Shown: positions 38,386 to 56,381 of the stretch, piece after piece
Position numbering within the stretch: position 1 is the first letter of the stretch
Layout: each line of letters begins with the position of its first letter
DNA from: Nostoc linckia z4
GTDB lineage: Bacteria > Cyanobacteriota > Cyanobacteriia > Cyanobacteriales > Nostocaceae
NCBI RefSeq assembly: GCF_002608075.1
Contig: NZ_LAHA01000035.1
Location: 14,453 to 77,333 of the forward strand
Length of the DNA stretch: 62,881 nucleotides
Direction: 5' to 3'
The notes under the pieces: generated by a model
What the model saw: only the letters and a program-made list of their open reading frames with translations
What the model was told of the DNA's origin: nothing
Databases searched by the model: none
Program-made: the position numbers and the translations under genes

Positions 38386-38695
38386 ACAAAATACAGATTA
38401 ATGAAGCGCAAATTTATGTAGATGAGCCATTATTCTCAATAATTAGATAAAATCCGGTAAATTTACCAGAATTTTTCTGATACCGTTTGTTGATCGGGCT
38501 GCGCTAAATATCAGATTTTTCAGGAAATTTCCCTATTCCCTGTTCACTTTTAATCTTTTATAACCCTATTGCCTCTTGCCTGCCTATACAGATCGGTTCA
38601 TTAATCAAATCGGACTGCTATGGAACCAAAATTTTAACTCAAGGTGACTATCTAGACATTTTGGGAACTATATAAAAGTAAATCTGATTAGCAAC

Positions 38696-40909
38696 TTGCA
38701 ATTCCCACCAATGAAGACTCGCTACTTTAGCAAAAACAAGGCGCTACCATTACAAATTTTTCTTGTTGTTCCCTTCGCAATCCAAATTTTTGCCGCAGTG
38801 AGTTTAGTGGGTTATTTGTCCTTTAAAAATGGACAAAGGGCTGTTAATGATTTAGCAGAACAGTTGATAGATCGTACTAGTGGCGTAGTGGATGAACACC
38901 TCAAGTCTTATCTTGCCATTCCCCAAACCCTGAATCAGATTAATGCAGATGTTATTCGCAGAGGAATATTAGATGTGCGCGATCGCCAAACTGTTGGTAA
39001 GTATTTCTGGGATCAAATCCAAGCCTATGACCTGACTTATATTGGTATTGGATTAACAACGGGTGAAGGAGTAGGTGCTGCTCGTTATGATGGCAAAACC
39101 ATTACCATTGATGATTGGACAGCTAAGCCTCCTAACAATGTTTACACTTATGCTACTGACAATCAAGGCAATCGAACTCAAGTAAATGCCCGTTGGAATT
39201 GGAAAAATTCCCAGCAATCTTGGTACACTCAACCAATAGCCGCCGGTAAACCCATTTGGACAAAGATTTTAGTTGAAAACTTTCCCACAGGCCCCTACAT
39301 CGTCACCTCTGCAAGTCGTCCAATTTATGATTCGCAAAATCGCTTGCTAGGGATGATTGGCTGCGATATTCATCTGCTGAAACTCAGCGATTTTTTACGT
39401 AGTTTGGATATTAGTCAATCTGGACGGGTGTTCCTTTTGGAACGAGATGGTAGATTAATCGCCACTTCTGGCACAGAAAAGCCTTTTACTTTGATTAATC
39501 AAAAGGCTGAGAGATTGCGGGCCGTGGACAGCACTGACCCAATAATACAGACTGTTGCTAAACACTTACAAACTTCTAATGGGTTTCAGTCCATTACCAA
39601 AGACACAGATTATAGGCTGGAGTTACAAGGAAAAAATTATTTTGTAGATATTACACCTTGGCGTGACGAGTATGGTTTAGATTGGCTATTGGTGGTGAGT
39701 GTGCCAGAAAACGCATTTATGGCGCAAATTAACGCCAACACCCAAACCGCCATCACCCTTTGTTTTGCTGCATTAATCGTTGCTTCAATTATCGGTATCT
39801 TTACCTCCCATTGGATTGTACGCCCGATTCTACGTCTAAATCGGGCAAGTAAGGCAATGGCTTCTGGTAATTTAGCTCAAACAGTAGAAACTAGCCCCAT
39901 TCATGAACTCAATACCCTGTCTAACTCATTTAATTACATGGCAGGGCAATTGCATGAATCGTTTACAGCTTTAGAAAAAACCAAAGACGAACTAGAAGAC
40001 AGGGTACAAGAACGTACTACTGAACTCAAAAATACATTACAGGAATTACAGCGCACTCAATCTCAAATAATTCAAACTGAAAAAATGTCCAGTCTGGGAC
40101 AACTAGTTGCTGGAGTCGCACACGAAATCAATAATCCAGTGAATTTTATTCATGGCAACCTCATCCATGTGGAACAATATACCCAGGATTTATTAGCAAT
40201 TTTGCAATTGTATCAGCAGCACAATTCTAATGCTGCTCCAGAAATTCAAATTGCTGCCGAAGAAATGGATTTGGAGTTTTTGCTACAAGACTTACCCAAA
40301 GTCTTATCTTCCATGAAAGTAGGCACAGATCGCATTCGCCAAATTGTACTTTCTCTGCGAAACTTTTCCCGCATGGACGAAGCGGAATTTAAACGCGTCG
40401 ATATTCATGAAGGTATTGACAGTACTTTGATGATTCTGCAACATCGCCTCAAAGGTAAACCACAACAACCTGAAATTGAAGTCATCAAAGACTACGGCAA
40501 TTTACCTTTAGTAGAATGCTATGCCGGACAACTAAATCAGGTGTTTATGAATATTTTAGTGAATGCCATTGATGCCTTAGAAGAAAATCATTTTCAAAGG
40601 AATCATCAGCAAAGCCAGGATAATTCTCATCAAATTATCATTCGTACATCAGTGATGAATTCAACGTGGATAAAAATAGCGATCGCTGATAACGGAGTTG
40701 GTATTTCTCAAGAATTGCAGCAACGAATATTCGATCCCTTTTTCACTACTAAACCCATTGGCAAAGGAACCGGAATGGGTATGTCTATTAGCTACCAAAT
40801 TATTACAGAACAACATGGCGGCAAACTAGAGTGTTGCTCAACTTTAGGAAAAGGAACTGAGTTTATCATTCAAATCCCTGTACGCAGAAAACCTCAAACA
40901 GCAAGTTGA
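38696..40909 (+). CDS. Sensor histidine kinase with periplasmic Cache/CHASE-like, HAMP, HisKA and HATPase_c domains
   Basis: Two TM segments flank an about 300-aa extracytoplasmic domain. H-box AGVAHEINNPVNFIHGNL. N, G1 and G2 boxes (NAIDAL, DNGVGI, GKGTGMGMS). Confidence 0.8.
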   Translation: MQFPPMKTRYFSKNKALPLQIFLVVPFAIQIFAAVSLVGYLSFKNGQRAVNDLAEQLIDRTSGVVDEHLKSYLAIPQTLNQINADVIRRGILDVRDRQTVGKYFWDQIQAYDLTYIGIGLTTGEGVGAARYDGKTITIDDWTAKPPNNVYTYATDNQGNRTQVNARWNWKNSQQSWYTQPIAAGKPIWTKILVENFPTGPYIVTSASRPIYDSQNRLLGMIGCDIHLLKLSDFLRSLDISQSGRVFLLERDGRLIATSGTEKPFTLINQKAERLRAVDSTDPIIQTVAKHLQTSNGFQSITKDTDYRLELQGKNYFVDITPWRDEYGLDWLLVVSVPENAFMAQINANTQTAITLCFAALIVASIIGIFTSHWIVRPILRLNRASKAMASGNLAQTVETSPIHELNTLSNSFNYMAGQLHESFTALEKTKDELEDRVQERTTELKNTLQELQRTQSQIIQTEKMSSLGQLVAGVAHEINNPVNFIHGNLIHVEQYTQDLLAILQLYQQHNSNAAPEIQIAAEEMDLEFLLQDLPKVLSSMKVGTDRIRQIVLSLRNFSRMDEAEFKRVDIHEGIDSTLMILQHRLKGKPQQPEIEVIKDYGNLPLVECYAGQLNQVFMNILVNAIDALEENHFQRNHQQSQDNSHQIIIRTSVMNSTWIKIAIADNGVGISQELQQRIFDPFFTTKPIGKGTGMGMSISYQIITEQHGGKLECCSTLGKGTEFIIQIPVRRKPQTAS

Positions 40910-41519
40910 ATTGGTAATTCATATTCGTAAAAGCTACTTAAAATTTTCTTTTGTCATCAGCAATATCTCCTTCAAAAGGTTGAACCCCGCTAGCTGGATA
41001 ATCATCATCCTTGGGTGCAAAAATTCTGCTAACAGCAGTTAATATGTAGTTGATGATTTTTCCGAAAAATTCTTGAATTGAGTTGATAAATTGCCGTATT
41101 TTTGTAGAAATTTTCATAAAATAATTCCTTGCTCAGACGTTTTCCATTTAACTTTCCCGTCAACAGTCAACAATCAACACTCAACAACCACCACAATTGA
41201 TTATGCTTTTTTAGCGTCCATTATTTTATACTTGCAAGCATCATATAGTAATCCGATTTGATTCCTGAAATTATCTGCGTAGGTAGGGAACAGGGAATAG
41301 GGAACAGGGAACAGAAAAGAAGGGTATAGATGTGTAATGAATCTTGTTCAAAAATCAAATAGGAGTCCTATACTTTATATACAATCAAAATAAATTATCT
41401 CTACTCCAAGAGTGAGTTTTGTGAGTAATTTAGTCAAAAGTATTAGTAATAATTTCCCTCCAAAGAAAGAATAAACTACCAAGGATGATAGCCAGAATTA
41501 GGTAGTTTAATCTAATGAT

Positions 41520-43979
41520 TTGACAATAGTCAGTACTCTATCTGCCTCCGTTTGTGATGTGCGGGGGTCTTTTGCTATGAACAAGCAGGCTGCGAAAATT
41601 TTTTATCACCATAAATCACAGGCATCAGTAGCAAGTTTTTTTACTTTTACTGCCGTGTCTGCTCCCTTGGCAATCTCTTTGATTGCTAATCCAGTGTTGG
41701 CTCAATCATCGAATGCTAATGTTAATACTTCTTTTCCGGTTCCGCAATCCATTCCTAGTGGAACACAAGTGCGGATTAATGGTACAACCAGCATGGAAAA
41801 GATTAATCAAGCATTAGCGCAGGAGTTTCAAAGCAAGTATCCTAATACAAATGTCACCACTGGATATGATGGAACAGATGCGTCTTTGAAAGCATTGCCA
41901 AATGGACAGATTGATTTAGCGGCCATTGGTCGTTCGTTAACTGACTCGGAGAAAGCCCAAGGGCTTGCAAGTATTCCCATTACTCGGAATAAAATTGCGG
42001 TAATTGTCGGCAAGGATAATCCATATATCAACAATCTGACTTCTGAACAATTTGCTCAAATCTTTCGGGGTGATGTTAATGACTGGTCACAAGTAGGGGG
42101 TTCTGCCCACAGAATTCGCTTGATCGATCGCCCAGAAAATAGCGACTTGCGGCAAGCATTCCAGAATTATCCTGTTTTTCAAAAAGCTCCTTTTAAAACA
42201 GGTAAAAATGCGATTCAAGTTTCCGCAGACAGTACAGAAGCGGTAGTCAAAGAATTAGGGACAGATGGTATTGGATATGCGATCGCCGACGGGGTAATCA
42301 ATAACCCCAATGTAAAAATTGTGGCACTACATAATGTTCTGCCCACCGATACCCGTTATCCCTTTTCTCAACCTTTGGCTTATGCCTACGATAAATTTAA
42401 TCCAAGTCCTGCTGCCACGGCATTTTTAGGCTTTGCTACTGCACCGGCTAATGGGGGAATCATTGAACAAGCCAGGGTGAACAATGCCAACCAAACAGCA
42501 TCCACGCCTACAGGAGCAATTCCTCCCACCACTCGGACTGTAACACAACCCCAACGTGAATCTTCATGGTGGTGGTTATTGCTGATTCCTTTACTAGGTG
42601 GATTATTATGGTGGTTAAGTCGGCGCAACGCAACTTTAACCCCCACTGGAGTTGCTACACCTGTTTTAGGGAGCGGCCAAACCTCAGAGAATCGTATCGT
42701 CCTCACACCTCGAAGTTGCAGAGATGCCTATGTTTACTGGGAAGTTTCCAATCAAGTAAAAGAAGATTTGCAACGGCAAGGTGGACGTGGTTTGAAGTTG
42801 CGTCTTTATGATGTCACTGATATTGACGACATAGACCGGCAAACACCACATAGCATGAAGGAATTTGATGTAGATGGACAAGCGCGAGATATTCACCTGC
42901 CCATCGAGCTAGATAACCGGGATTATGTTGTTGAGCTTGGTTGTTTGAGCAACAATAATCGCTGGTTAAACATCGCTCGTTCGGCGAAAGTGCGAGTTCC
43001 TGCTTGCCAACCGGTTGGCGTTATCCCTACAGTGGCAAGTGGTGTTGCGGCTGCTTCTTTAGGGGACAATAACTCCATAACTACAAAAGATGAAGGTCGT
43101 GTAATTTTAGTACCTCGTAACTCCCAAGATGTCTATGCTTATTGGGAAATTCCCGAAGCACGCAAGGCAGAACTGCAACGCCAGGGGGGAAGACAGTTGG
43201 CGCTTCGTCTTTATGACAGTACAGGCATGGATTTGGAACGGCGGAGTGCCCAAAGTTTTCGGCAGTTTGAGTGTGACGAATCAACACAAGATTTACACAT
43301 TCCCATTGCCCAAAGCGATCGCGACTATGTGGCAGAATTAGGATACATTACTGCCAATGGGCATTGGCTAAAAGTGGCTGAGTCAGCACCGATAAAAGTT
43401 TCATCCACTGTTAAAGAAGGTAGTGCCGTCACATCCTCTGATGGGGCAACTAACTTGCCACAGTTGCAACGGAGCGATCGCACATCTAACCCAATTGTTG
43501 ATGTCAGAAATAGAGTTAACGAAACCATTGCAGAAACTACACCTATGGTAGGAGGCTTGGGAGCCACTGCTCACTCACTTTTAGGCAGAAAACAAGGTGA
43601 TGGCTTACAAACACCTTTAAGCGATCGCTCGACCATCAAAAGAGATTGCCGGATTATCCTAGTACCTCGCAACACGAAGGATGCTTATGCCTACTGGGAA
43701 ATTGCAGATGAGTACAAAGCAGCTGCCCGCATACAAGGCGGACGCAGATTTATCCTGCGAATTCACGATGTCACAAATTTAGACATTGAACATCAGTCGC
43801 CCCATAGTACTCAAGAATATCCATGCAATGAACGCGAACAAGACAAACACGTGGCCATTCCAGCAAGCGATCGCGATTATCTTGCAGAAATAGGTTATTA
43901 CACAGATGATGGCCGCTGGCTGAGTATTATTCGCTCCTTTGACGTTCACATACCATCCAATAAGCTGTTGAGCATTTAA
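41520..43979 (+). CDS. Membrane-anchored protein: PstS-like periplasmic phosphate-binding domain plus three about 150-aa DUF4912-like repeats
   Basis: N-terminal PBP type-2 pattern (GTTSMEKINQ...IDLAAIGRSLTDSEK). W-rich TM segment (WWWLLLIPLLGGLLWWL). Three repeats of ILVPRN..DAYAYWEI...QGGR.L.LR.YDVT...DYVAELGY...W. Confidence 0.55.
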   Translation: MTIVSTLSASVCDVRGSFAMNKQAAKIFYHHKSQASVASFFTFTAVSAPLAISLIANPVLAQSSNANVNTSFPVPQSIPSGTQVRINGTTSMEKINQALAQEFQSKYPNTNVTTGYDGTDASLKALPNGQIDLAAIGRSLTDSEKAQGLASIPITRNKIAVIVGKDNPYINNLTSEQFAQIFRGDVNDWSQVGGSAHRIRLIDRPENSDLRQAFQNYPVFQKAPFKTGKNAIQVSADSTEAVVKELGTDGIGYAIADGVINNPNVKIVALHNVLPTDTRYPFSQPLAYAYDKFNPSPAATAFLGFATAPANGGIIEQARVNNANQTASTPTGAIPPTTRTVTQPQRESSWWWLLLIPLLGGLLWWLSRRNATLTPTGVATPVLGSGQTSENRIVLTPRSCRDAYVYWEVSNQVKEDLQRQGGRGLKLRLYDVTDIDDIDRQTPHSMKEFDVDGQARDIHLPIELDNRDYVVELGCLSNNNRWLNIARSAKVRVPACQPVGVIPTVASGVAAASLGDNNSITTKDEGRVILVPRNSQDVYAYWEIPEARKAELQRQGGRQLALRLYDSTGMDLERRSAQSFRQFECDESTQDLHIPIAQSDRDYVAELGYITANGHWLKVAESAPIKVSSTVKEGSAVTSSDGATNLPQLQRSDRTSNPIVDVRNRVNETIAETTPMVGGLGATAHSLLGRKQGDGLQTPLSDRSTIKRDCRIILVPRNTKDAYAYWEIADEYKAAARIQGGRRFILRIHDVTNLDIEHQSPHSTQEYPCNEREQDKHVAIPASDRDYLAEIGYYTDDGRWLSIIRSFDVHIPSNKLLSI

Positions 43980-44020
43980 TCAGCAGTCATCCGCCGATTA
44001 TATCAAGTCATGAATTTTAA

Positions 44021-44560
44021 ATGAGAGAGGAATTAATCATGGGACTTTTTTTTGAGGTTCTCAGTGCCATTAATAATCCCAATCAACGCGGAAATGTTAC
44101 TCAGTTAGAGTCAATTATCAACTCAATTCAACAAGTGGCAACTAGTCGAGGCATTCAACCATCTCAAATGCAAAATATTATGTCAGTTGTGGGTAATATG
44201 CTTCGTCCAGTACTTAGGCAGCAGCAGTCATTACCGGATGGAAATCAGTTACAAAATCTGATTAGTCAAGCTGGTAGTACTAGCACCAGTGGAGTGGGAA
44301 TGCAATCTTTACTCTCACCTCAGTTGCAGCAGCAAATTGTTCAAACAGTTTCCCAAACAACAAGAATCAGCCCGAATGTAATTGACGCTATTTTGCCCAC
44401 AATCATTTCAGCCGTACAAAGTATGCTCAGTATGGGTTCTACCAGTGGTGGATCTGTAAATTCAAATTCTATTTTGCATACTTTTTTAGATAGCGATCGC
44501 GATGGCGACACCGACTTAAGTGACGTTCTGAGATTTGGCGATCGTTTTCTTCATCCATAA
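44021..44560 (+). CDS. Hypothetical Gln-rich protein with a C-terminal Asp-rich (DSDRDGDTDLSD) motif
   Basis: ORF only. An EF-hand-like acidic loop is possible. Confidence 0.3.
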   Translation: MREELIMGLFFEVLSAINNPNQRGNVTQLESIINSIQQVATSRGIQPSQMQNIMSVVGNMLRPVLRQQQSLPDGNQLQNLISQAGSTSTSGVGMQSLLSPQLQQQIVQTVSQTTRISPNVIDAILPTIISAVQSMLSMGSTSGGSVNSNSILHTFLDSDRDGDTDLSDVLRFGDRFLHP

Positions 44561-44840
44561 TATACATACTGGGTTGCGATAGCGATGATTCCCACAGCCA
44601 TTGCACCCCACCCCTTGACAAGATGCAGCTGGTGAATAGAGGATGAGACCCCTCGTCGAGCCACAAATTGGTTTGTAGAGACGTAGCATTGCTACGTCTC
44701 TACATAGGGTGGAATGACTTCTGCAAGAAGTCAATTGTGAAGTTATTTTGCTGGTAATATAATATACGAAGTTTAATCCTTAACAGGTTATACAGTTGAA
44801 CAGATAGTTACAACTAATAATCTTATTTGTTAATAAACTT

Positions 44841-45488
44841 ATGCAGATAAATCAAGTCATTGAAACCTACGATCGCGGTGCGGTGGATTATGACGCAATC
44901 ATGAAGCGTTACTGGCACATTGAACGCGAACCGCTAATTGCTTCCTTACAGCTTCAGCCAGGACAAACCGTACTCGATGCTGCGGTGGGAACTGGTCTTA
45001 ATCTTAGTGCTTATCCCCAAGGAGTACATGTTGTCGGTGTCGATCTTTCTCATAAGATGATCGATGAAGCACGTGAAAAAACTGTATCCGCAGACATCAC
45101 CTTCAAGGTGTCGGATATCTGCAATTTAGATTTTCCTGATAATAACTTTGATGCAGCAGCATCGGGATTTACCCTGTGTGTTGTTGACGATCCCGTTCGT
45201 GCTTTGGAAGAAATTTTAAGAGTTACCAAACCTGGTGCTTTAATTGCCATTCTTGATTATTGCAAATCACGAGATCCAGAGATTGCAAAATGGCAAGAAT
45301 TAATATCTGATGCAGCCTCACAACTAGGTTTTCCCACTGACAAAATCAAGTGGAATGCATTGATGGATTATGACGAATTAATTTACAACAGTAAGCTGAA
45401 CATTGAAGTGCTGGTAGATAATCGCATAGAAAGTGCCAACCCATTTTCATGTGGTTGTCAATTACTATTGAAAAATTCCAAAGTTTAG
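44841..45488 (+). CDS. Class I SAM-dependent methyltransferase
   Basis: Motif I VLDAAVGTGLNL, post-I acidic residue and motif II-like DAAASGFTL. Confidence 0.6.
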   Translation: MQINQVIETYDRGAVDYDAIMKRYWHIEREPLIASLQLQPGQTVLDAAVGTGLNLSAYPQGVHVVGVDLSHKMIDEAREKTVSADITFKVSDICNLDFPDNNFDAAASGFTLCVVDDPVRALEEILRVTKPGALIAILDYCKSRDPEIAKWQELISDAASQLGFPTDKIKWNALMDYDELIYNSKLNIEVLVDNRIESANPFSCGCQLLLKNSKV

Positions 45489-45674
45489 AAACTATTTATA
45501 ACGTAAATCTTAACTAGATGCGTTACGGCTGAACGCCTGACACACCGCCATACAAGATGGTGTGTTAGGCGCTTAGTTCATATTTTTCTTAACGGGGAAC
45601 AGGGAACTCTTAACAGACTTTGCTGTTGCCTGTTGCCCGTTCCCTGTTCCCTCTCCCGAAGGGAGTTGACAATT

Positions 45675-46061
45675 CTATACCTGTAAAAGAATTCGTGCTG
45701 CAATACCAGTCACATGATGAAGTGCATCTAGAAGTCTAGTTTCGTTTTCAGGTTTTTCTAATTCTTTATTCAAGGAATTAATACTTGCTTTTAAATCTGA
45801 TTGAAGCCTTTCAATTTGACCAGCAATTTTTTCCAAGATAGCATTCTCTATCTTAGCTATAGCGACAATTAAATCTCCTCTAGCTTGCACAAAAGATTTT
45901 GCTAAACACAAATTGGTTTCTGATGTGCAAATTAATATAACTTCTTCAAGAGAACCAAGCTTGAATTCAACATCTCTGAGTTCTTCAAGTAGTTCTTCTC
46001 TAAGAATATCAATTGGGTTTAGGCGTTCCGGAATAAAAGTAGACATTTTTTCGATCCTCAA
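45675..46061 (-). CDS. Small coiled-coil protein; paralog of the 46214..46597 product
   Basis: Heptad-rich. C-terminal ...GIAARILLQV parallels ...GIVSRIVLLAR in its neighbour. Confidence 0.4.
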   Translation of the reverse strand: MRIEKMSTFIPERLNPIDILREELLEELRDVEFKLGSLEEVILICTSETNLCLAKSFVQARGDLIVAIAKIENAILEKIAGQIERLQSDLKASINSLNKELEKPENETRLLDALHHVTGIAARILLQV

Positions 46062-46213
46062 AAATTACAATTATTAATGCTTAAAGGTAAGTTGATAGTA
46101 CTTACGCATTGACCGAAAATTCCAAATGTGAATGAGTTTAAAAACCATATCTTTCGTATGGGTTTAGCATTGCTAAACCCAAACTAATTAGCTGATATAT
46201 ACCTTGAATATTC

Positions 46214-46597
46214 TTATCTAGCTAAAAGAACGATTCTTGAAACAATACCGATTACCCGCTCTATAGTTTGCAAAACTGTGATGGTATTTTCTAATTTTGC
46301 TAGCTCTTTTTTTAAGTTAGCAATGCCTGATTCTAAGTCTCCATTAAGTTTTTCAAGTCGTTCTGCAATACTGCCTATTGATGCATCTTGTAGCTTTCGT
46401 TTGCAAAGTATATAATCTTTTCTGGCTTCAAGATATCTTTTCCATTTAACTTCATCTTTATCATTTTCAAATTCTTTTTTAAATTTTAAGAATGTTCTAA
46501 CAGAATCTAAATCTACTTGTGTTTCTTCTAATTCTCTAAGCCGATTGTTTCTGATGTTATCTACATTAGTTAGACGACTAATAATTAGACTTGTCAT
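46214..46597 (-). CDS. Small coiled-coil protein (paralog of 45675..46061)
   Basis: See the paralog. The start abuts the stop of the upstream lipoprotein gene. Confidence 0.4.
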   Translation of the reverse strand: MTSLIISRLTNVDNIRNNRLRELEETQVDLDSVRTFLKFKKEFENDKDEVKWKRYLEARKDYILCKRKLQDASIGSIAERLEKLNGDLESGIANLKKELAKLENTITVLQTIERVIGIVSRIVLLAR

Positions 46598-46599
46598 AT

Positions 46600-47475
46600 T
46601 TACTCCTTGGTTTTTAATGTTTCAATTACAGATAAAAGATCTTCAATGTCTGTTAGTAATGCGTTAATCCGTCCACTACTAGACCGACCCTCTACAAAAT
46701 CTTGAAATATGTTTTGAAAATCTCCCAGTGCTTGACTTGCATTTTCAAGTTCTGCGGCAGTGAGTTCTTGAGTTAATAGTTCTCTGCGAGTAGCTATCCA
46801 TGTATCTTCATCAGCGATGGGTGTGGGTTGGAGCAATGGGTTAATGACAAGTCTTAGTTCTTGTCTATCTTGAATTCCCTTTAAATCACCTTTAATTTGA
46901 GTACTCAGAACATTGAGTAACTCTTGCTGTGTCTTTAATTCAAGCATAATAGTCTGATTGCGTTTTTGCAGTTCTTCTTTAAGAGCGCCCCGAATCTTAG
47001 AACTGACGATTAGTTTTCCTATACCTTGAAAAACCTCTTTATTTTCTATTAAGTTGCTTTCTCGTAAGGTCTGACCTATTGTATTTAAATTATCTACTAC
47101 CCCTCCAATAGCAGTTTGTGTTCGCTCAGGAGCATCAGACCCAGCTAAGTCCTGTAGTAATTTAAAATACTTACTCAGCAAGCTGTTGTGTTTTTTGAGC
47201 CGATTAATTAAGTCAATTCTATTACTATCTGAATCTGAAAATTCATTGTAATCATCAGATGTTTGATTATTTTCTCTGTCTTGTAATAAAAGTTCTTCAG
47301 AGCTTTCGTCAATTCGAGTTACAACAGCTAGATCTAATAGTTGGTTGAGAGCTTTGGAATAATTAGTTCCTGCCTGTGCTAGTTTTTTATATTCGTCAGT
47401 GGAACGACAAGCACTCAAACAAGTTGTGGCTATTGCTACAGCAATTATTATTGGAAAGTGAATTTTATTTTTCAT
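46600..47475 (-). CDS. Putative lipoprotein with coiled-coil regions
   Basis: Signal peptide followed by a lipobox-like LSAC. Helical, heptad-rich remainder. Confidence 0.45.
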   Translation of the reverse strand: MKNKIHFPIIIAVAIATTCLSACRSTDEYKKLAQAGTNYSKALNQLLDLAVVTRIDESSEELLLQDRENNQTSDDYNEFSDSDSNRIDLINRLKKHNSLLSKYFKLLQDLAGSDAPERTQTAIGGVVDNLNTIGQTLRESNLIENKEVFQGIGKLIVSSKIRGALKEELQKRNQTIMLELKTQQELLNVLSTQIKGDLKGIQDRQELRLVINPLLQPTPIADEDTWIATRRELLTQELTAAELENASQALGDFQNIFQDFVEGRSSSGRINALLTDIEDLLSVIETLKTKE

Positions 47476-47551
47476 CTATTGTTTTCAAAGTTGCCCAAAA
47501 ATTATCGCATCAAATGTAGTTTTTGATTGAAAAATAGTAAAATAGATTAAA

Positions 47552-49222
47552 TTATCCATTTTTTAAATTCAGAAAATTTTGTCGAATCCACAATCTAAAT
47601 ATGCGTTTTAAAAGCCACTTTGTTAAGGGTTTTCCAATAAATATCCGGACATTCAGCTTAATAAAACTCCATAACTTAGATAAACGAGAACCATTATTTT
47701 TCATATCAAGCGGTTCTAGCCTGTCATTGATTAGATCCACCAAAGATTCTAAACGGAAGCTTAACTGATTTACAATTTCTTGACGTGTTTCTATGTCAAC
47801 CTCTGCCATTAACCTTCGTAATTCTGCAAGTTGATCTCGTTTGATGGCGTCATTATCTTGTAGTTGTTCTCCTTCTGGTGAACGAGGTTTTGCTAATTGA
47901 CTTAACTCTTTTTTTGCTTCATCCCAAGTATTTAAATTTTTATCGTTAACCTTACAATTAACTATCCACTCAAGAGGTGGCATTTTATTAAGTTCAAGGT
48001 TGAGTAAATCTTGGAGTTGACTCTTTGCTTGAAGATTGGACAGTTCAAATTGAGTGCGTTCCCGACCAATGTTGTAATCATAAGCCCGGAATTTCTTTTC
48101 AAGAAATCCAGCAAAGGCTGAGAAGACATCGCCAATTAACTCAAAGTCATTAGCTGTAATGGAAAATACTGGAGCATCCATTTCTTCCATAATCCAATCT
48201 TGGAAGCGAGACTGGTGAAAAATTGAACTCAGCAATGCAATTCCTGTTACCAAGAGATCGTTATCTTTTTTGATAAAAGGATTTTCGGGTAATTGGCGTT
48301 GACCTGGTGCAATATAAAGGTAATATCTTTTATCAGATAAATCTTGATTTTGATCGATGCGATCCACGAGGAGTTTAGCCATACCAATAGGCTCATTTTC
48401 AAAAACTCCACCATCTGTGTACAGATACTCCTCATTACGATCGCGACGCTTACCAAATCCACCAAAACGTCGAATTTTCCGAAGTTTAAAAGCGAAGGGA
48501 AATGCACCAGATGATAGACCGGCTTCGCGTAACTCACTCCAGTTAGTATCTCTAAGTTTTTTCCATTCTATTGACTCGCGTCCTGTTCTTGGATCTCTTA
48601 TTGTCTCTCGATCTATTTCATCAAGCGTCACATTCCCAAATCCATCGCGACGAGCTAGACACACAAATTGATCCTTATAACGGGTATATGCAAACTTTAG
48701 TGTTCCTTCTTTTCGGCCTTCACGAGCGTAATCAGTTGTAAGAGGGAAAGTATAGCCAGACAAGTTGGACATAGCTATACCAACATAAATCTCAGACGCA
48801 GCAGCCGGATGCTTTTGGTTGATTTGAACACGATCTTGCAGATATTTATTCCCAATTTTTTCAACAACTGCTGTTTGTAAAAGTGAGTATTTTTGATCTT
48901 CTTTTTCAACTTTAATTAATTCCCGAATATCAACTTCATCAACCCATGCATTGTAGAGTGGATTATTATATGGTTTGCGTAAAGACTGGTCTGGACGAAA
49001 GGGTGCAGGCTGATCGCCACAAAGAAGATGTTGGACTAAAATACAAGCCGTCATCCCACCCGCCGAAGCACCTGTAATTACATCAATTTCAATGGGTTCT
49101 TCATGATTTTTTATATCTTCGTTATGTCTGGCGATCGCTTCCAAAATTTCATACATAACGCCAGCTTCATAACTGCCAAGTGATACTGCTCCACTGATAA
49201 CAACGGCAAGCTTTTTGGGCAT
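47552..49222 (-). CDS. Patatin-like phospholipase with a C-terminal about 200-aa extension
   Basis: Gly-rich oxyanion loop (VVISGAVSLGSYEAG), GxSxG nucleophile (ITGASAGGM) and a downstream catalytic DGG (YLYTDGGVFENEP). Confidence 0.7.
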   Translation of the reverse strand: MPKKLAVVISGAVSLGSYEAGVMYEILEAIARHNEDIKNHEEPIEIDVITGASAGGMTACILVQHLLCGDQPAPFRPDQSLRKPYNNPLYNAWVDEVDIRELIKVEKEDQKYSLLQTAVVEKIGNKYLQDRVQINQKHPAAASEIYVGIAMSNLSGYTFPLTTDYAREGRKEGTLKFAYTRYKDQFVCLARRDGFGNVTLDEIDRETIRDPRTGRESIEWKKLRDTNWSELREAGLSSGAFPFAFKLRKIRRFGGFGKRRDRNEEYLYTDGGVFENEPIGMAKLLVDRIDQNQDLSDKRYYLYIAPGQRQLPENPFIKKDNDLLVTGIALLSSIFHQSRFQDWIMEEMDAPVFSITANDFELIGDVFSAFAGFLEKKFRAYDYNIGRERTQFELSNLQAKSQLQDLLNLELNKMPPLEWIVNCKVNDKNLNTWDEAKKELSQLAKPRSPEGEQLQDNDAIKRDQLAELRRLMAEVDIETRQEIVNQLSFRLESLVDLINDRLEPLDMKNNGSRLSKLWSFIKLNVRIFIGKPLTKWLLKRIFRLWIRQNFLNLKNG

Positions 49223-49751
49223 TAATTTCCCTCACTTCATGTCTAAAAATTTAGAATAAACGGAATTTTTTTGTATAAATGCTTTTTTTGGGCAGTTTTT
49301 TAACACTTTTCCGTAGATTTCCTGATTGTATCAGCAATTATTTTTTTTAAAACTACAGATGTATTAAAAAATATTACACAGATGGTAATTGAATTTTAGA
49401 ATTTTTTTATATCTCTGGACATAGAAAAATAAGATGCCGCTCTGGAACTTATTTGCCAACAAGCATAGATAAATCAGGTTTAAAATATTCTCTAATGAAA
49501 TAAATAAAAAGAGTCTTGGGTTACTACATCCAAAAAAGCTGCTTTAGTAGATGTAAAATATAGCTAGAGGTAATTTAATAAAGTTAAAATAAATAAAGTT
49601 TTCTTTACACATGAATGCTTTTCAGACTAAAGCCAGTATTATTCTTAATAAAAAACAAAAAATATACATCAAAGTCATCAAAATTTTTAATTTATGAAAT
49701 TGTGGTGCGTTGCATTTGAGAACAAGACACCACAATCTACATCATTTAGTT

Positions 49752-50549
49752 TTACAAATGATTTTTAAACAATTCTAAAACATGTTGCCAAGCATCAGGA
49801 GCAGCTTCAGGATTGTAACTTGGATGTTGTTCCATAAATGGGTACTTATCTTTGAAAAATCCGGCGAAAAATCCGTGCCCGGCATCGTATCTAAATACAC
49901 GATGATTGATTTGATGTTTTTTTAATTCTGCTTCAATTTGTTCAGTTTCCTCCTGAGAAATAAATGTATCTCTTGTACCGAAAAAGGCATAAATAGTACC
50001 TTGAATTTGTGAAGTGCGATTAATAGTTGGAGTTTCTTCACCATAACTAGAAGTGGTAATTCCAGCACCGTAAAACGAAGCTGTAGCTTTGATATCCGGG
50101 AAAGTTGCAGCGATGTAAGCAACATGACCGCCAAAACAAAAACCAACGACACCAATGGCATCATGTTTAACATTGGGTAAAGTTTTTAAGTAGGCGATCG
50201 CCGCTTGAATATCACTTAAGATATCTTGATACTTTACTTGTTGATAGTATTCCAATCCCAGCCGATAGGCTTCTGGACTAAATCCAACATCTTCAGCACT
50301 AAGATCCGCTGCAAAACCAGGAGCAATCCGTTGATACATCGCGGGAGCTATTACTACATAACCTTGTTTAGCAATTAATTCAGTGATGTCTCGAATGTTA
50401 TTATTGATGCCAAAAATTTCTGGAAAAACGATAACGGCGGCAAAGGTTCCTTCATGTGCTGGTTGAGCTAAGTAAGCATCAATTTCTAAGTTATTGTTAG
50501 GTATTTTGACTTTTGCGGTGTTAATTTCGATGTTTGTGATTTCTACCAT
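49752..50549 (-). CDS. Dienelactone hydrolase-family alpha/beta hydrolase
   Basis: GFCFGG nucleophile-elbow region, plus conserved His and Asp positions (YDAGHGF). Confidence 0.65.
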   Translation of the reverse strand: MVEITNIEINTAKVKIPNNNLEIDAYLAQPAHEGTFAAVIVFPEIFGINNNIRDITELIAKQGYVVIAPAMYQRIAPGFAADLSAEDVGFSPEAYRLGLEYYQQVKYQDILSDIQAAIAYLKTLPNVKHDAIGVVGFCFGGHVAYIAATFPDIKATASFYGAGITTSSYGEETPTINRTSQIQGTIYAFFGTRDTFISQEETEQIEAELKKHQINHRVFRYDAGHGFFAGFFKDKYPFMEQHPSYNPEAAPDAWQHVLELFKNHL

Positions 50550-50948
50550 CTTTTTTCAGGTTATTTGATACCAACTTTTCTATTTTGGCTGTTTTTTGAC
50601 ACGGATGATAAACTGGCATTGCATTTAAGTCAGAAATGTTTTGGTGTTGATTGTTGACTGATGACGGTTGACTGTTGACAGTATGAGTGAGTGTATAATT
50701 TAAAAGTTTAATAATCTGCAACAAGCTAATTTTTTCCGTTTACACAGCAACCACAAGCTAGACGGTCGTATGATAAATCACACAACCAAGGCATGAAAAT
50801 ATTTATTTCTCAGTCAACAGTCAACATTGAATTTATAACTTTTGAATAGACAACATCTCGAACTTCTGGATGATACTAAGGGTTTTTGATTTGTGCGACC
50901 TTACAAAGGTAAGCATAAAGACTCAATATTAAGAAGCACAAAAAAACT

Positions 50949-51488
50949 ATGCCAGATCAAACATTTAGAGCAAACATACCAGAAGTTGACCCAACGGAGA
51001 TTGAAGATACTCGAACTGCCATCGCTGACGAACATCGTTCATTTTTAGAAAAAGTCATGGTGAAAGGTGGGTTTGCAGACATCTATGACGCCAGAGACTT
51101 TACCGAAGTTGTGTTTCGCGTCATGCGTGATTTGATGACAACAGAAGCAAGCGATCGCGTCGAGGGAGAACTGCATAAAGAAGCCGTATCTACCGATGAA
51201 AAAGCACTCCAGTTTGATATTGCCGATCTTTGGAAAGATACCAATCCAATTGTGGGATTTTTAAGCCGAGTTCGTCCACCCTGGCAAGGCCCTGGAATTT
51301 TCAAAATCGATTCCGATCGCTTTTTGTTCCGAGTTGCTAATGAAGGGGGCAAACCAGAAACAGTTGACCGAGAACAGGCAGTAAAAGCCGTATTTTCTGC
51401 CACCAAAGACGAACTTTCCCAAGAAAGAATTGAAGAAATTGCTAGTTGGCTACCTGACTATGTACGTCAGCTTTGGCAACAAGCTTAA
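50949..51488 (+). CDS. Hypothetical protein (possibly DUF2267-like)
   Basis: Weak resemblance only. Confidence 0.3.
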   Translation: MPDQTFRANIPEVDPTEIEDTRTAIADEHRSFLEKVMVKGGFADIYDARDFTEVVFRVMRDLMTTEASDRVEGELHKEAVSTDEKALQFDIADLWKDTNPIVGFLSRVRPPWQGPGIFKIDSDRFLFRVANEGGKPETVDREQAVKAVFSATKDELSQERIEEIASWLPDYVRQLWQQA

Positions 51489-51555
51489 TTACAAGTGTGA
51501 AAAAGTCAAGCCTGTTTGCAGTTGACGATAATTGCAAGCAGACTTTTTATATAAA

Positions 51556-51924
51556 TCACTCCGCAGACTTCACCGTTTGATTTGCCACCAAGCGTGGTTT
51601 CTTTCGTTCTGACTTACGCGTTCCACCAGCCATACCATATTCATCACTATTTTTGCCATAGCGAGACGCAACACTCAGCAGCATGTGTTCAGAATAATCA
51701 TTCAACACACGTTCAGCTTCTTCTAATGCATTCTGCGTTTTATCTATCATCGTTCGTGCTTGATTATGGGCGGCTAGCTTTTCTCGCAAATCCTGAATCA
51801 TAGTATTGTAACTAGTTATTGATAACCCATTACCAAAATCTAAGTCAGGCTTAATCGCCTGCATTCCTTCAACCCGTCGTTCAGCTTTCGTCAGTGCAAC
51901 TGAGTTTCGTCTGCGTTGCGGCAT
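51556..51924 (-). CDS. Hypothetical protein; paralog of the 36699..37124 gene
   Basis: See the paralog alignment. Preceded on its strand by the 20-bp tandem repeat array at 52121..52298. Confidence 0.5.
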   Translation of the reverse strand: MPQRRRNSVALTKAERRVEGMQAIKPDLDFGNGLSITSYNTMIQDLREKLAAHNQARTMIDKTQNALEEAERVLNDYSEHMLLSVASRYGKNSDEYGMAGGTRKSERKKPRLVANQTVKSAE

Positions 51925-52120
51925 AAAGTTTTCCTTTTTGGATTAATTTATAAAGAACGCTAATGTTCCTTGACACTGAGTTCTTTATATACCACTAAAT
52001 TACGCAATTAGCAGATGCACCAGCCTGAGTAAAGCTACATAATTTATAGAACATTCACAATACAGCATAAATACGGTTATATTTGCTGAAATTTTTGAAT
52101 ATTAAGGGATTTACGACTTG

Positions 52121-52298
52121 AAAACTTGATTTAGAAGTCCAAAACTTGATTTAGAAGTTCAAAACTTGATTTAGAAGTCCAAAACTTGATTTAGAAGTTC
52201 AAAACTTGATTTACAAGTCCAAAACTTGATTTACAAGTCCAAAACTTGATTTACAAGTCCAAAACTTGATTTACAAGTCCAAAACTTGATTTACCAGC
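52121..52298. repeat. Tandem direct repeat, 20-bp unit (aaaacttgattta[gc]aagt[ct]c), about 9 copies
   Basis: Units start every 20 bp from 52121 to 52281. The first four have tagaag, the next four tacaag, and the last is degenerate. Confidence 0.9.
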
Positions 52299-52349
52299 AA
52301 GCTGTTGCACAGCACAGCCTAAATTAGGGATGCGATCGCGCTTATTTTC

Positions 52350-52685
52350 TCAGGCTACGCCATATTGCGTATATTGGCGCAAGTGTGATGGCTGTAGTCC
52401 TAAAACAATATCCTCTCTGGGTACTCCCATTTCAGTCAACTCTTGGGCAATTTGGATATCAGTCATATTACGCTGAATCCATATTTTTTCATCTTTAATA
52501 TCGAGATGTATCACACAATTATAAATGCGATCGTATCCATACCAGCCAATCTCTAAAATCTGGTAATGGTCTCGCGCTGTATCGAATATCAGTTGAATTT
52601 CAACATCTTCCTCTGAAGGTTGGTAACTGCTATATTTAGTTAATAACTTTTGAATATATTCACGATATTGGTCTAGCTTTGCCAT
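52350..52685 (-). CDS. xisI: XisI (accessory factor of fdxN-element excision)
   Basis: 111 aa. The N-terminus MAKLDQYREYIQKLLTKY and the size match XisI. Overlaps xisH by 13 nt, as in Anabaena. Confidence 0.75.
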   Translation of the reverse strand: MAKLDQYREYIQKLLTKYSSYQPSEEDVEIQLIFDTARDHYQILEIGWYGYDRIYNCVIHLDIKDEKIWIQRNMTDIQIAQELTEMGVPREDIVLGLQPSHLRQYTQYGVA

Positions 52686-53089
52686 TGCACAATCACCTCA
52701 TCATTTGGATCGTAAACTATTAATTTAACTTGATATTCTTGTACTGAACTTTGGGCAAAGTCCCGGCTAAATAGCGATCTATACGTTGACAGTGGAACTG
52801 CTAGGAACAAAACTCTCTCAGGTTCTCTGAGTCGCAAAGCTAATCGATAATTGAGAAACTGCCCCAAAGCCGCATGGTAGTCAAAAAGTTCTGAATCCCC
52901 TAAAAAACTTTTGATTTCAACAGCAATTTTCTCTGTTCCTCGCTCAGCTGCTAAGATTTGTTCCGCACCTAAATCGATTGACATTTTATCTTTGCCAAAC
53001 TTAACCACTAGCGGATCGTGCGTAATAATCCACCCTTCTTTTTCTAGTCCCCGTTTAACGGCTTCATGAAAAATGTCTTTTGCAGACAC
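52673..53089 (-). CDS. xisH: XisH (accessory factor of fdxN-element excision; endonuclease-like fold)
   Basis: 138 aa. MSAKDIFHEAVKRGLEKEGWIITHDPL matches the XisH N-terminus. Paired with xisI. Confidence 0.75.
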   Translation of the reverse strand: MSAKDIFHEAVKRGLEKEGWIITHDPLVVKFGKDKMSIDLGAEQILAAERGTEKIAVEIKSFLGDSELFDYHAALGQFLNYRLALRLREPERVLFLAVPLSTYRSLFSRDFAQSSVQEYQVKLIVYDPNDEVIVQWQS

Positions 53090-53309
53090 GGACAGAACCA
53101 GAACCCAATAACCTTATGATACCGAACTATGATTATGCTGCATTGCACTTTGCGATAAATATAGGAGGAATGCGATCGCCTGCTGATACAATGAAGGTGC
53201 GTTGCCCTTTGCGACAACGCACCCTACATTAGAGATGCGATATTATAATTTGATTTCCTGTCTTATTAGAATTACCTCAAGATTCAGGATTGCTATATCG
53301 TTTACATTA

Positions 53310-54332
53310 TCATTCCAAAACTGTAGATGATGAGGATTTAGATACTTGAGTCATTTGATACTCGATCTGCGTAATTGCAGACATTATACTGTATTCATGC
53401 CCTTCTAATAGAGCATTTTTAATCTCTCTAACTTGCTCTAGGAGAGCTTTTCTAAGATATGGCTTTTGTTTAGATACGTAAGAATGATGACTCCAAATAT
53501 CAGAACCAATGATAAGAAATCCTGCTATCCAACCAGCAGCACACTTCGCTGCAAATGATGTTATTGCCTTGCCTAATCCTGCTTTAAGAGCAGTTTTACA
53601 GCCTAACTTCGCTAAAATTTTAGTGGCTTGTTTGCCGACATAAGCAATAAATTCTGTAGAAGATAATGTCATTTTCATGCCATATACTGCGCCTGTTATT
53701 GCCATGTCCTTTCCCCCCTTTTCAATCCAATATGCGATGTTACTAAACTGATAAATAATTCCCCCTTTTTCATAAGTTATCTTGCTGAGTTCCATGCTTA
53801 ATTCCTGAAACTCAACATTAGAAAGTTCATACTTGCATTGAATTTCCATAAAACCTTTTGCTAGTTCTACTGCATAAACATCAACCGTCTGTGTGAGTAT
53901 ATTCTGCATTTTTCTTTCCATCTGAGTAGGTGATAAAATATATACTTCAATCTTTTGTGCAACTTCTGTCTGTAGTGACTCTTTAGAAATAAGAGACATT
54001 AGACCTATTTTCTTTTGATAAAAATAATCAAAATATTCTTCCATGAAAACTTCTATATTTGGTTGCAGAGATTGAATCCACTCTTCTAAATGCTTATCTG
54101 CAAAGTCCTTGGCTTTAATTTTTGATTTCTCAAAAACAGCTAAAATTTCTTCAAGGAATTTCTCGCGGCTAAAATGTCTGTTAACTCTGTGCTTTTTATT
54201 TGAACCGCCAGGATTGTCTGACAAACTATATCGAGCAGTAAACAAGTAGATAAAGCACCAAAATATCAATAACATGGCTGTACCATAGCCTAGTACACTG
54301 CCGAAGGAATCAAGAAAATGGGAAAGCATCAC
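53310..54332 (-). CDS. Hypothetical membrane-associated protein
   Basis: N-terminal TM helix and a C-terminal hydrophobic region. AT-rich codon usage. Co-oriented directly downstream of the P-loop NTPase gene. Confidence 0.35.
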   Translation of the reverse strand: MMLSHFLDSFGSVLGYGTAMLLIFWCFIYLFTARYSLSDNPGGSNKKHRVNRHFSREKFLEEILAVFEKSKIKAKDFADKHLEEWIQSLQPNIEVFMEEYFDYFYQKKIGLMSLISKESLQTEVAQKIEVYILSPTQMERKMQNILTQTVDVYAVELAKGFMEIQCKYELSNVEFQELSMELSKITYEKGGIIYQFSNIAYWIEKGGKDMAITGAVYGMKMTLSSTEFIAYVGKQATKILAKLGCKTALKAGLGKAITSFAAKCAAGWIAGFLIIGSDIWSHHSYVSKQKPYLRKALLEQVREIKNALLEGHEYSIMSAITQIEYQMTQVSKSSSSTVLE

Positions 54333-54527
54333 TTACTCGTAATGAATTACGCAGATAGCTTACCAAAACACTGATTTCGGAAGTTTCGGGAGAAAGGTAG
54401 TCCGCACTCAACTACTCCTACAAGGATTTCCAGACCTCAAGAACAAAAAATCCTTAGGTTCTCATGAGGTTTTTTCGTAAATTTTTTGTAAATTTTTTAT
54501 AAATTTTTATTAAAAATGGGGGCTAGG

Positions 54528-56225: not shown

Positions 56226-56381
56226 AAAAAATTATTATACATTTAGTCTTTGAATAAACTCTTTGCTTTATATTTACTTTACAAATAAAATTCAACAGGT
56301 TTATCAATGATTATTTTAGAACGAGTTTTTTACCTGACGGGGCAATAAGCACCTCAGAATCCTTATCATGTATAAATTTAA

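Follow-up and report, generated by a model that had tools for sequence, protein, structure and literature searches.

The Bell/BASS proteins, 120-140 aa in length, carry a helical bundle of about 100 aa with a hydrophobic N-terminal helix that has an acidic residue at position 2-3, and their hallmark is a C-terminal motif that is repeated on the N-terminus of an adjacent NLR (Dyrka et al. 2020, bioRxiv 10.1101/2020.01.06.895854). In the EACC1 system, a small membrane-associated constant component, a single-TM alpha+beta domain, is encoded 5' of a gene for a caspase with a variable C-terminal effector; it occurs mainly in actinobacteria, in multicellular bacteria, and is STAND-linked (Kaur et al. 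2020). The EADs of STAND and vWA-MoxR conflict systems form homotypic pairs, in which core component and effector each carry a copy of the same domain (Kaur et al. 2020). Here we compare these systems with a locus from Nostoc linckia z4 that includes a lipoprotein and a small helical protein. This lipoprotein-small protein pair is previously undescribed and is not assignable to any described system, as an earlier sequence-only reading had held for the operon as a whole. Neither protein belongs to a Pfam, NCBIfam, PADLOC or PHROG family, neither has a solved relative, and no description of either was found in the literature searched.

The locus consists of four genes on the minus strand of the window, by which we mean the whole stretch of 62,881 nucleotides that was analyzed. 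These encode a patatin-like phospholipase (47552..49222, 556 aa, Pfam PF01734), a predicted lipoprotein (46600..47475, 291 aa), and two small paralogous proteins, smA (46214..46597, 127 aa) and smB (45675..46046, 123 aa). All four open reading frames are present where the sequence-only reading had placed them, and purifying selection acts on each, with dN/dS values against orthologues of 0.15-0.20 for the lipoprotein, 0.16-0.22 for smB, 0.35-0.42 for smA and 0.49 for the patatin (the last against locus L001). The four are therefore real genes, and, with 482 representative clusters in the small family, the alternative that the small reading frames are poorly conserved or non-coding clearly fails. 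Orthologues of smB are present in loci L001, L094 and L106; its most likely start is the ATG at 46046 rather than the TTG at 46061, which would give 128 aa, because GAGGA lies about 10 nt upstream of the former and the L094 orthologue starts at the same residue. The locus gave no PADLOC match. The operon had been called tightly packed, a description that holds only in part: smA starts 2 nt past the lipoprotein stop, and there are gaps of 76 nt between patatin and lipoprotein and of 167 nt between smA and smB. The latter gap contains a hairpin on the minus strand (inverted repeat I9, 46153..46187, 17-nt arms and a 1-nt loop) that may act as an attenuator or processing site partly uncoupling smB. 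A further minus-strand inverted repeat (I2, 45595..45651, 22-nt arms and a 13-nt spacer), 24 nt past the smB stop, is likely to mark the end of the transcription unit. A methyltransferase gene, convergent with the operon, ends at 45488.

The operon is carried by an XisA-type nifD excision element of about 32.5 kb (26206..58715), which bears out the earlier suggestion that it lies inside such an element. The element is bounded by 11-bp direct repeats, GGATTACTCCG, at 26206-26216 and 58705-58715. On one side, nifH is followed by a nifD that matches its model only to position 440 of 466 and then by the first repeat; on the other, the second copy lies just past a gene for an XisA-type recombinase within the element (57050-58351, minus strand), ahead of nifK. 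The same layout, with an XisAC_N/XisAC_2nd recombinase and nifK, is found in the elements of Nostoc NIES-25 and GT001.

The patatin matches its Pfam model over residues 7-282 (E=7.6e-14, 52.8 bits against a cut-off of 27.7 bits). All 19 homologues compared retain the catalytic motifs GxSxG (G51-A-S53-A-G55) and D270-G271-G272, and the Ser-Asp dyad is intact. The oxyanion loop is a variant, S-G11-A-V-S-L-G16, which is nearly invariant in the clade and lacks the basic residue of GGxR/K. The sequence opens directly with the catalytic fold, with no signal peptide; the catalytic domain spans roughly residues 1-390 and is followed by a cyanobacteria-specific C-terminal extension of about 165 aa that ends in a basic amphipathic segment. 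Full-length homologues were found across cyanobacteria, and those from outside the phylum align to residues 1 to about 400 only. The nearest NCBIfam model, TIGR03607, scores far under its cut-off. The protein resembles CapV of CBASS and other patatin defence effectors in its fold, its Ser-Asp dyad and, plausibly, its capacity to degrade membranes, but it belongs to a different clade with the SGAVSLG oxyanion loop. The NCBIfam model CBASS_lipase (NF041079) gave only E=0.08 and 12.2 bits where its cut-off is 200 bits, the PADLOC model for phospholipase effectors covers just 57 residues, and among the operon neighbours there is no CD-NTase cyclase, nucleotidyltransferase or other signalling gene; the analogy with CBASS drawn in the sequence-only reading thus fails.

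The 291-aa protein is a predicted bacterial lipoprotein. Its N-terminus has a signal-like segment with a basic n-region, a hydrophobic h-region and a lipobox, ending in LSAC (MKNKIHFPIIIAVAIATTCLSAC|RS), and the lipobox cysteine, C23, is invariant in 14 aligned family members and present in 17 of the 17 others inspected. This part of the earlier description as a coiled-coil lipoprotein stands, but the AF2 model (pLDDT 71) contains helices only, arranged as an all-alpha bundle. A family search returned 46 clusters, every one of them nameless and without a Pfam domain. A phage spanin or lysis cassette was considered and rejected: among 2.9 million viral contigs no relative of the lipoprotein was found, and there was no meaningful PHROG match; at 290 aa the protein is also unlike a small o-spanin, and the small protein lacks the N-terminal TM segment of an i-spanin.

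The small proteins share 39% identity over 72 aa (pairwise E=1e-14) and a C-terminal G-I-x-x-R-I-x-L motif, in agreement with their earlier designation as paralogs; this motif is the hallmark of the whole small family, which comprises 482 representative clusters (50% identity) in cyanobacteria and soil bacteria, mostly of 109-127 aa. The duplication into smA and smB was observed only in the Nostoc nifD-element clade. Both had been described as coiled coils, whereas AF2 predicts compact five-helix bundles (for smA, pLDDT 92.7 and pTM 0.84). In smA, the protein terminates in a hydrophobic helix that carries the G-I-x-x-R-I motif and that the model packs into the bundle; across the family, these tails, examined as candidate tail anchors, have a median 19-aa hydropathy of 1.58 and contain 2-3 charges. 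A structural search, which had been suggested earlier, was run by Foldseek with the small-protein model and gave nothing significant (best E=0.28; Rx-CC E=1.6), so that any likeness is at the level of a generic helical bundle.

The small proteins resemble Bell in being helical bundles of about 100-140 aa (five helices in our model), in their enrichment in Nostocaceae and other multicellular lineages, and in having NLR-like neighbours, but their genes pair with a lipoprotein gene rather than with an NLR. Membership of Bell/BASS was rejected: the first 20 aa have a mean hydropathy of -0.39, so that the N-terminal helix is not hydrophobic, and in L081, L083 and the window the start of the neighbouring NLR carries no copy of the C-terminal motif, local alignments scoring 21-23 where shuffled sequences average 21-22. 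An acidic D or E at positions 2-4 is found in only half of the family members.

Examination of the genomic context of related loci revealed that the invariant unit is the lipoprotein plus one small-family protein, hereafter the pair, rather than all four genes. At 28 of 28 loci the lipoprotein gene is immediately followed, on the same strand and after 2-30 nt, by a small-family gene, and the lipoprotein is the constant component of this conserved pair. The patatin clade lies upstream of the pair in the window and in L001 and downstream of it in L006. In Pseudanabaena (L021), the order is patatin, a lipoprotein-like gene and a small-family member, and in Calothrix a decayed lipoprotein pseudogene lies upstream of the patatin. 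Other lipolytic genes also adjoin the pair, including a truncated classical patatin with GGGxRG and GTSTG motifs in L104 and a Lipase_3 with an intact GHSLGG motif in L083. The earlier proposal of an effector-regulator module is supported in part: the accessory genes recur near lipolytic and proteolytic effectors and STAND or TIR genes, but the four genes do not form an obligate unit with the patatin at its head. The pair has a STAND or TIR gene next to it in L081, L083, L085, L086, L096 and L100; because STAND genes are abundant in Nostocales genomes, some of this adjacency is expected by chance. The STAND proteins of L083 and L107 share 72% identity from end to end, and the secreted proteins encoded beside them are homologous, yet the slot downstream holds the pair with Lipase_3 in one and a patatin orthologue alone in the other. 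The effector slot is thus swapped at orthologous STAND loci.

Even when closely related nifD elements of Nostoc are compared, the patatin and the trio of lipoprotein, smA and smB are present or absent independently of each other. In Nostoc NIES-25 and L094 the trio is retained (intact in NIES-25) and still under purifying selection, whereas the patatin has been deleted, leaving a remnant; in Nostoc GT001 the patatin is present without the trio. Patatin homologues without the pair were found at more than 60 other loci and in Cylindrospermum, and most homologues from picocyanobacteria, Chlorobi, Verrucomicrobia and Acidobacteria lack the partners. Clustering of the patatin with partnerless homologues, which had been named as evidence against a module, holds for the wider family but not within the Nostocales. 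The patatin is one replaceable partner of the pair. Conversely, the pair occurs with no recognisable effector nearby in L087, L095, L098 and L105; together with the retention of the trio after patatin loss, this implies that the pair must have a role that does not require an effector alongside it.

Four contigs encode, directly after the lipoprotein gene, a caspase plus lipase-like protein to whose N-terminus the small domain is fused. In the full-length fusions (L085 and L100; those in L102 and L099 are truncated), the domain occupies residues ~10-112 of proteins of 1267-1273 aa with Peptidase_C14 and DUF7379/PGAP1/LCAT-like regions. A caspase-DUF7379 protein of Cylindrospermum, 46% identical to the fusion, has neither the small domain nor a lipoprotein neighbour. 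The order of lipoprotein followed by small domain, caspase and hydrolase in L085 and L100 mirrors the EACC1 layout, but the constant part here consists of two proteins, a lipobox lipoprotein and a putative five-helix adaptor, and the effectors are mostly free-standing lipases rather than caspase fusions. The 5' gene does not fit EACC1 itself, as it encodes a lipobox lipoprotein without a significant Pfam match (assuming that the Pfam set contains the EACC1 model). A 3' gene for a caspase with a variable effector is found in L085, L100 and L102; the window has a separate, upstream patatin. Kaur et al. 2020 make no mention of a lipoprotein partner. Like the EADs, the small domain is a non-enzymatic all-alpha domain that is either free-standing or at an effector N-terminus, is enriched in Nostocales and lies near STAND NTPases; its obligate partner, however, is the lipoprotein. 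No second copy of the domain was found on adjacent STAND proteins, as homotypic pairing would entail, and the Pfam EAD models match neither smA nor smB.

The locus is composed of two separable modules, the pair and the patatin. As the best explanation, which we put forward tentatively and whose mechanism is conjectural, the small protein would be the adaptor that links a membrane-associated constant pair to exchangeable degradative effectors within cell-suicide or conflict islands. An exported lipoprotein of ~290 aa would be made with a translationally coupled cytoplasmic five-helix protein of ~110-127 aa, and the latter would couple the effector to a membrane site marked by the lipoprotein. 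The effector would be the patatin here and, elsewhere, Lipase_3, a classical patatin, or the adaptor-fused caspase plus lipase-like giant; once triggered, it would degrade the membrane of its own cell. Such cassettes would be cargo of the NLR-like (STAND/TIR) conflict or programmed-cell-death islands of multicellular cyanobacteria. The scheme draws on the strict pairing, the fusion, the lipolytic and STAND/TIR neighbours, the exchange between the L083 and L107 loci, the peptidoglycan-hydrolase neighbours of patatin orthologues, and the contrast between effectors devoid of signal peptides and a lipoprotein with an invariant lipobox. Contact of the small protein with the lipoprotein or the effectors, its membrane topology, the trigger of the system and its outcome, be it defence or cell death, are all presumed in this scheme. 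The adaptor reading is weakened by the lack of an obvious contact route between a lipid-anchored periplasmic protein and a cytoplasmic one, and also by the mostly pairless patatin clade, the lone pairs and the patatin-less trios. That the pair constitutes a new, widespread two-component module, an envelope lipoprotein with a cytoplasmic adaptor or executioner that arms interchangeable lipases and caspases in cell death, is a more speculative and rather unlikely extension; if true, the pair would be to prokaryotes what executioner modules of the CC, HeLo and MLKL types are to NLR immunity in eukaryotes.

Independent assortment, selection on the trio without a patatin, the lone pairs and the many pairless patatins would also be explained if the juxtaposition were fortuitous, the pair having a function of its own unrelated to lipases, such as envelope maintenance or stress, and merely sharing variable islands, for instance nifD-element cargo, with patatins, lipases and STAND genes. 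We regard this as doubtful, though a real contender, since the small domain is joined to an effector only where a lipoprotein gene lies alongside, four unrelated lipolytic families flank the pair in six or more different arrangements, and orthologous STAND loci exchange the pair and Lipase_3 for a patatin. It is unlikely that the pair is itself the membrane-active effector, with the small bundle opening, oligomerising and permeabilising membranes in the manner of CC, HeLo, MLKL-4HB or Bell, the lipoprotein serving as partner or receptor, and the neighbouring lipases and caspases acting as parallel effectors of the same islands. The insignificant Foldseek scores, the lack of a sequence link to executioner families and the missing Bell/BASS features, the hydrophobic helix being C-terminal and not N-terminal, all argue against such a role.

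Immunity proteins against phospholipase toxins, as in the Tle/Tli pairs of T6SS, are typically periplasmic lipoproteins, and here too a lipase gene adjoins the gene for a periplasmic lipoprotein. The lipoprotein and its partner might accordingly shield the producer's membranes from the phospholipase, and the patatin-less trios would then resemble orphan immunity genes. This is nevertheless very unlikely: the patatin, Lipase_3 and caspase giant have no signal peptides, in contrast to the lipobox lipoprotein, and no VgrG, Hcp, PAAR or other secretion-system genes were found in the window or related loci. Moreover, the same lipoprotein family is found beside several hydrolase folds that are unrelated, so that a single immunity family would have to neutralise four of them; GT001, Cylindrospermum and the >60 other loci have a patatin but no pair; and the partner domain is fused to the effector, implausible for an immunity domain and its own toxin. 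Most improbable of all is ordinary lipid housekeeping, in which the patatin would remodel membrane lipids beside unrelated structural proteins, although full-length homologues are widespread in cyanobacteria and the picocyanobacterial ones lie among metabolic genes without partners. In Nostocales the patatin is dispensable (deleted in NIES-25 and L094), changes position and is under relatively relaxed selection (the dN/dS of 0.49). Its orthologues there occupy variable islands, including nifD elements, which supports the view that the patatin of heterocystous cyanobacteria is not a plain housekeeping enzyme. In four heterocystous strains they come immediately after genes for peptidoglycan hydrolases, as would suit an enzyme that degrades the envelope, and another is flanked by an NLR-like STAND NTPase gene on one side and caspase/PAF-AH genes on the other.

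Around the operon in the window are genes for a dienelactone hydrolase, a DUF2267 protein, the methyltransferase and a PBP-DUF4912 protein. Further along the element, on the minus strand, are a gene for a STAND NTPase with an N-terminal EAD4 (54528-56225; Pfam EAD4 E=1.5e-5, with NPHP3_N, NACHT and nSTAND3) and, after it, one for a 340-aa putative membrane protein (53310-54332), whose TM-like segments were read by eye. Lying about 5 kb from the patatin, these two genes (53310..56225) are treated as neighbours rather than as members of the locus.

Comparison with orthologous loci indicated that all four minus-strand open reading frames are genuine genes: the lipoprotein and smB have dN/dS ratios of 0.15-0.22 and smA one of 0.35-0.42, and the patatin, at 0.49, is under the weakest constraint of the four. 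The patatin-like phospholipase (556 aa; 47552-49222, minus strand) matches Pfam Patatin above threshold over residues 7-282 (E=7.6e-14) and retains the catalytic serine (G-A-S53-A-G) and aspartate (D270-G-G), neither of which varies among 19 aligned homologues. The next gene (46600-47475, minus strand) encodes a 291-aa product with a basic and hydrophobic N-terminus up to LSAC; because the cysteine of this motif is invariant family-wide in the alignment, the product is a predicted lipoprotein. The first small gene, smA (46214-46597, minus strand), starts 2 nt past the lipoprotein stop codon. The second, smB, lies 167 nt beyond smA on the same strand; its most likely start codon is the ATG at 46046, to judge from an upstream GAGGA and an orthologue that begins at the same residue. 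The sequence-only reading had identified these four frames, and its further claims that the small proteins are paralogs (39% identity over 72 aa, E=1e-14) and share a C-terminal motif (the terminal G-I-x-x-R-I-x-L) were likewise confirmed. A strong hairpin occupies the gap between smA and smB, and an inverted repeat is located 3' of smB; a promoter and terminator consensus scan performed no better than on shuffled sequence, and Rfam identified no RNA element near the operon.

The novelty of this locus is the pair formed by the lipoprotein and a small protein, not the patatin. An exhaustive profile search collected 482 representative clusters of the small family, 137 of them at E<=1e-10, most members being free-standing proteins of ~109 aa in which the profile match extends to the C-terminus. 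This breadth and the dN/dS ratios argue against the concern that the small reading frames might be poorly conserved or non-coding. The lipoprotein family comprises 46 clusters by word-indexed search, none of them named, and a small-family gene is found immediately after the lipoprotein gene in 28 of 28 available loci, soil-metagenome contigs included; the smA/smB duplication is confined to the Nostoc nifD-element clade. The proteins of the trio (the lipoprotein, smA and smB) gave only sub-threshold coiled-coil noise against PADLOC, NCBIfam, Pfam and PHROG, and family profiles of the pair retrieved only designed or coiled-coil chains from the PDB, with no solved structure matched. A contig scan found no lipoprotein relatives in viral contigs, and neither literature searches nor the papers of Kaur et al. 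(2020, 2021), Dyrka et al. (2020) and Doré et al. (2024), among them work on the conflict systems of multicellular bacteria, yielded a description of the pair. Profile-profile comparison found no small-protein-like domain within the lipoprotein or within the C-terminal extension of the patatin (probability <1% in each case). AF2 modeled smA with high confidence as a compact five-helix bundle that includes a hydrophobic C-terminal helix (pLDDT 92.7, pTM 0.84) and the lipoprotein as an all-alpha bundle (pLDDT 71) with no informative match. The tail of the small family, considered as a putative tail anchor, is borderline for a membrane span (median hydropathy 1.58, 2-3 charges and a conserved arginine), and AF2 packs the C-terminal helix into the bundle.

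We fetched 80 genomic loci around homologues of the patatin (comparison loci carry L numbers) and examined them by BLAST and HMM. These initial searches placed partner genes at only 2 of the 80 loci, to which broader HMMs added a decayed lipoprotein pseudogene from Calothrix and, from Pseudanabaena, a divergent small protein. Patatin homologues are full-length across cyanobacteria, including the ~165-aa C-terminal extension, and those of Chlorobi, Verrucomicrobia and Acidobacteria cover the first ~390-400 residues only; a PDB search with the patatin-clade profile found no solved relative at E<=1e-3. Picocyanobacterial copies sit amid ordinary genes. Those of heterocystous cyanobacteria resemble island cargo in their placement. 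The Cylindrospermum copy lies between a gene for a HTH_VMAP-M9/NB-ARC/WD40 STAND protein and genes for a caspase-DUF7379 protein and PAF-AH, and that of Nostoc GT001 adjoins xisA. In Calothrix, Scytonema and Brasilonema (L002-L005; for example L003:4658-8695 and L004:4168-8731), an orthologue with 61-65% identity to that of the window is located directly 3' of peptidoglycan hydrolase genes on the same strand (PG_binding_1 with CHAP; glucosaminidase with amidase_2; peptidase M15_3), with a gene for a conserved ~175-aa protein also directly upstream, an arrangement that looks like an envelope-degrading gene cluster.

The patatin and the trio also separate from one another. The nifD element of Nostoc linckia NIES-25 has the same synteny and an intact trio, yet all that is left of its patatin is codons 1-15 fused to codons ~509-548, and locus L094 carries a similar remnant. 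Conversely, Nostoc GT001 has the patatin but lacks the trio, and lone pairs occur at four loci (L087, L095, L098 and L105). The four-gene operon is therefore one configuration of two modules and not an indivisible system. The sequence-only reading had raised the possibility of an effector-regulator operon headed by the patatin and unassignable to any described system; its unassignability and the conservation of the partners stand, but the notion of a single unit headed by the patatin does not.

What accompanies the pair varies. A patatin of the window clade lies upstream of it in the window and in L001 and downstream in L006, and lipoprotein-gene remnants are found upstream of the patatin in Calothrix. 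The order in Pseudanabaena is patatin, lipoprotein-like gene, small-family member, although homology of this 385-aa lipoprotein-like protein to the lipoprotein family was not demonstrable (hhalign probability 2%). The neighbour of the pair is a Lipase_3 protein with an intact GHSLGG motif in L083 and a truncated classical patatin in L104. The most telling observation is a fusion: L085 and L100 have no free small protein, and there the small domain makes up residues ~10-112 of a 1267-1273-aa protein that combines a caspase with a DUF7379/PGAP1/LCAT-like part and is encoded directly after the lipoprotein gene. Truncated small-domain/caspase fusions are present in L102 and L099, whereas the caspase-DUF7379 protein of Cylindrospermum, 46% identical, has neither the small domain nor a lipoprotein neighbour. 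Genes for STAND NTPases or a TIR protein border the pair at six loci (L081, L083, L085, L086, L096 and L100). L083 and L107 encode STAND proteins with 72% identity across their entire length, next to secreted proteins that are homologous between the two loci, and the slot after this region holds the pair with Lipase_3 in one genome and, in the other, only a patatin. The membrane proteins encoded 5' of the pair in L105 and L091 have no detectable relationship to each other.

The interval from the STAND gene to the effector slot repeatedly encodes secreted cysteine-containing proteins (L083:5020-5706; L107:4488-5060 and 5416-5766; L003:3572-3910). A C-terminal C..CH.GG..NRNPN motif is common to those of 228 aa in L083 and 116 aa in L107, and the former is also homologous to the 190-aa protein of L107 (34% identity, E=1e-10) and the 112-aa protein of L003 (52% over 50 aa). 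In Nostoc minutum (L081:7351-9186), three unannotated genes without Pfam matches (174, 271 and 134 aa) come after the pair; as they occupy the position of the lipase at other loci, their products are possible novel effectors.

Strict pairing, a fusion whose occurrence follows that of the lipoprotein gene, and the variety of lipolytic and proteolytic neighbours are together best fitted by a constant component, the pair, which we infer to be membrane-associated. The small protein would couple interchangeable degradative effectors to it, the patatin would be one such effector, and the whole arrangement would lie within conflict or cell-death islands linked to STAND genes. The main rivals are that independent modules lie together by chance, that the pair is itself a membrane-active effector, that it has an immunity function, and plain housekeeping. 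Of these, immunity is disfavoured, because the effectors lack export signals, the patatin mostly occurs without the pair and the small domain is fused to an effector.

Multicellular cyanobacteria have many NLR-like sensors, caspases and lipases, which are presumed to drive altruistic cell death or antiviral immunity. The pair at this locus is compact, conserved and wholly unannotated; it accompanies such effectors and in some cases is physically joined to one of them. Should its small protein act as an adaptor or a membrane executioner, this would be simple to test with one lipase and two or three small genes, and bacterial conflict systems would gain a new class of component. The view of the operon is also corrected: the patatin is a replaceable passenger, and the pair is thus the proper centre of experiments.

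Proteins of the window are 99-100% identical to their counterparts in Nostoc sp. 2RC. The 11-mer GGATTACTCCG occurs at 26206, after nifH and an interrupted nifD whose match to the model ends at position 440 of 466, and again at 58705, past a gene for a XisA-type recombinase and before nifK and nifE. The operon, located between these copies, thus belongs to the cargo of a nifD excision element of ~32.5 kb (26206-58715), as had been proposed. Because the element is excised during development, the genetic linkage of the operon to the chromosome differs between vegetative cells and heterocysts. Related cargo is present in the same element of NIES-25 and Nostoc GT001. The window element is far larger than the classic one of Anabaena PCC 7120 (~11 kb).

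Other cargo includes a methyltransferase-like gene, a histidine kinase, a Band 7 protein, TraX, an RTX protein, a PBP-DUF4912 protein and XisH/XisI-like genes (52350-53089). A 350-aa reverse transcriptase (31534-32586, minus strand; RVT_1 E=1.7e-23) is flanked by three tRNA genes (31288-33121, minus strand), one for a tRNA-Ile whose anticodon, TAT, is unusual and two side by side for tRNA-Met(CAT); Rfam reported neither a group II intron nor a retron RNA at gathering threshold. About 5 kb from the patatin, a STAND NTPase that carries EAD4 at its N-terminus (Pfam E=1.5e-5) together with NACHT/NPHP3_N is followed by a 340-aa membrane protein with TM-like segments (53310-56225, minus strand). These look like a separate two-gene conflict system, and we found nothing connecting them to the operon. 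The NIES-25 element encodes a free-standing 166-aa HTH_VMAP-M9 protein (L106:4626-5126, minus strand), 32-42% identical to the first ~60-96 residues of the L081, L083 and L107 STAND proteins; elsewhere this domain forms the N-terminus of STAND NTPases beside the pair. A 122-aa protein of unassigned function (51556-51924, minus strand), ~2.3 kb from the patatin, shares 44% identity (E=5e-30) with a 120-aa protein of Nostoc DSM 114167 (L087:4667-5029) encoded ~1 kb upstream of a lone pair, and may be another recurrent neighbour. Outside the element lies a CRISPR array of 20 repeats (15410-16811, minus strand; Rfam CRISPR-DR5), and the large open reading frames upstream of it (2651-15322) are probably cas genes.
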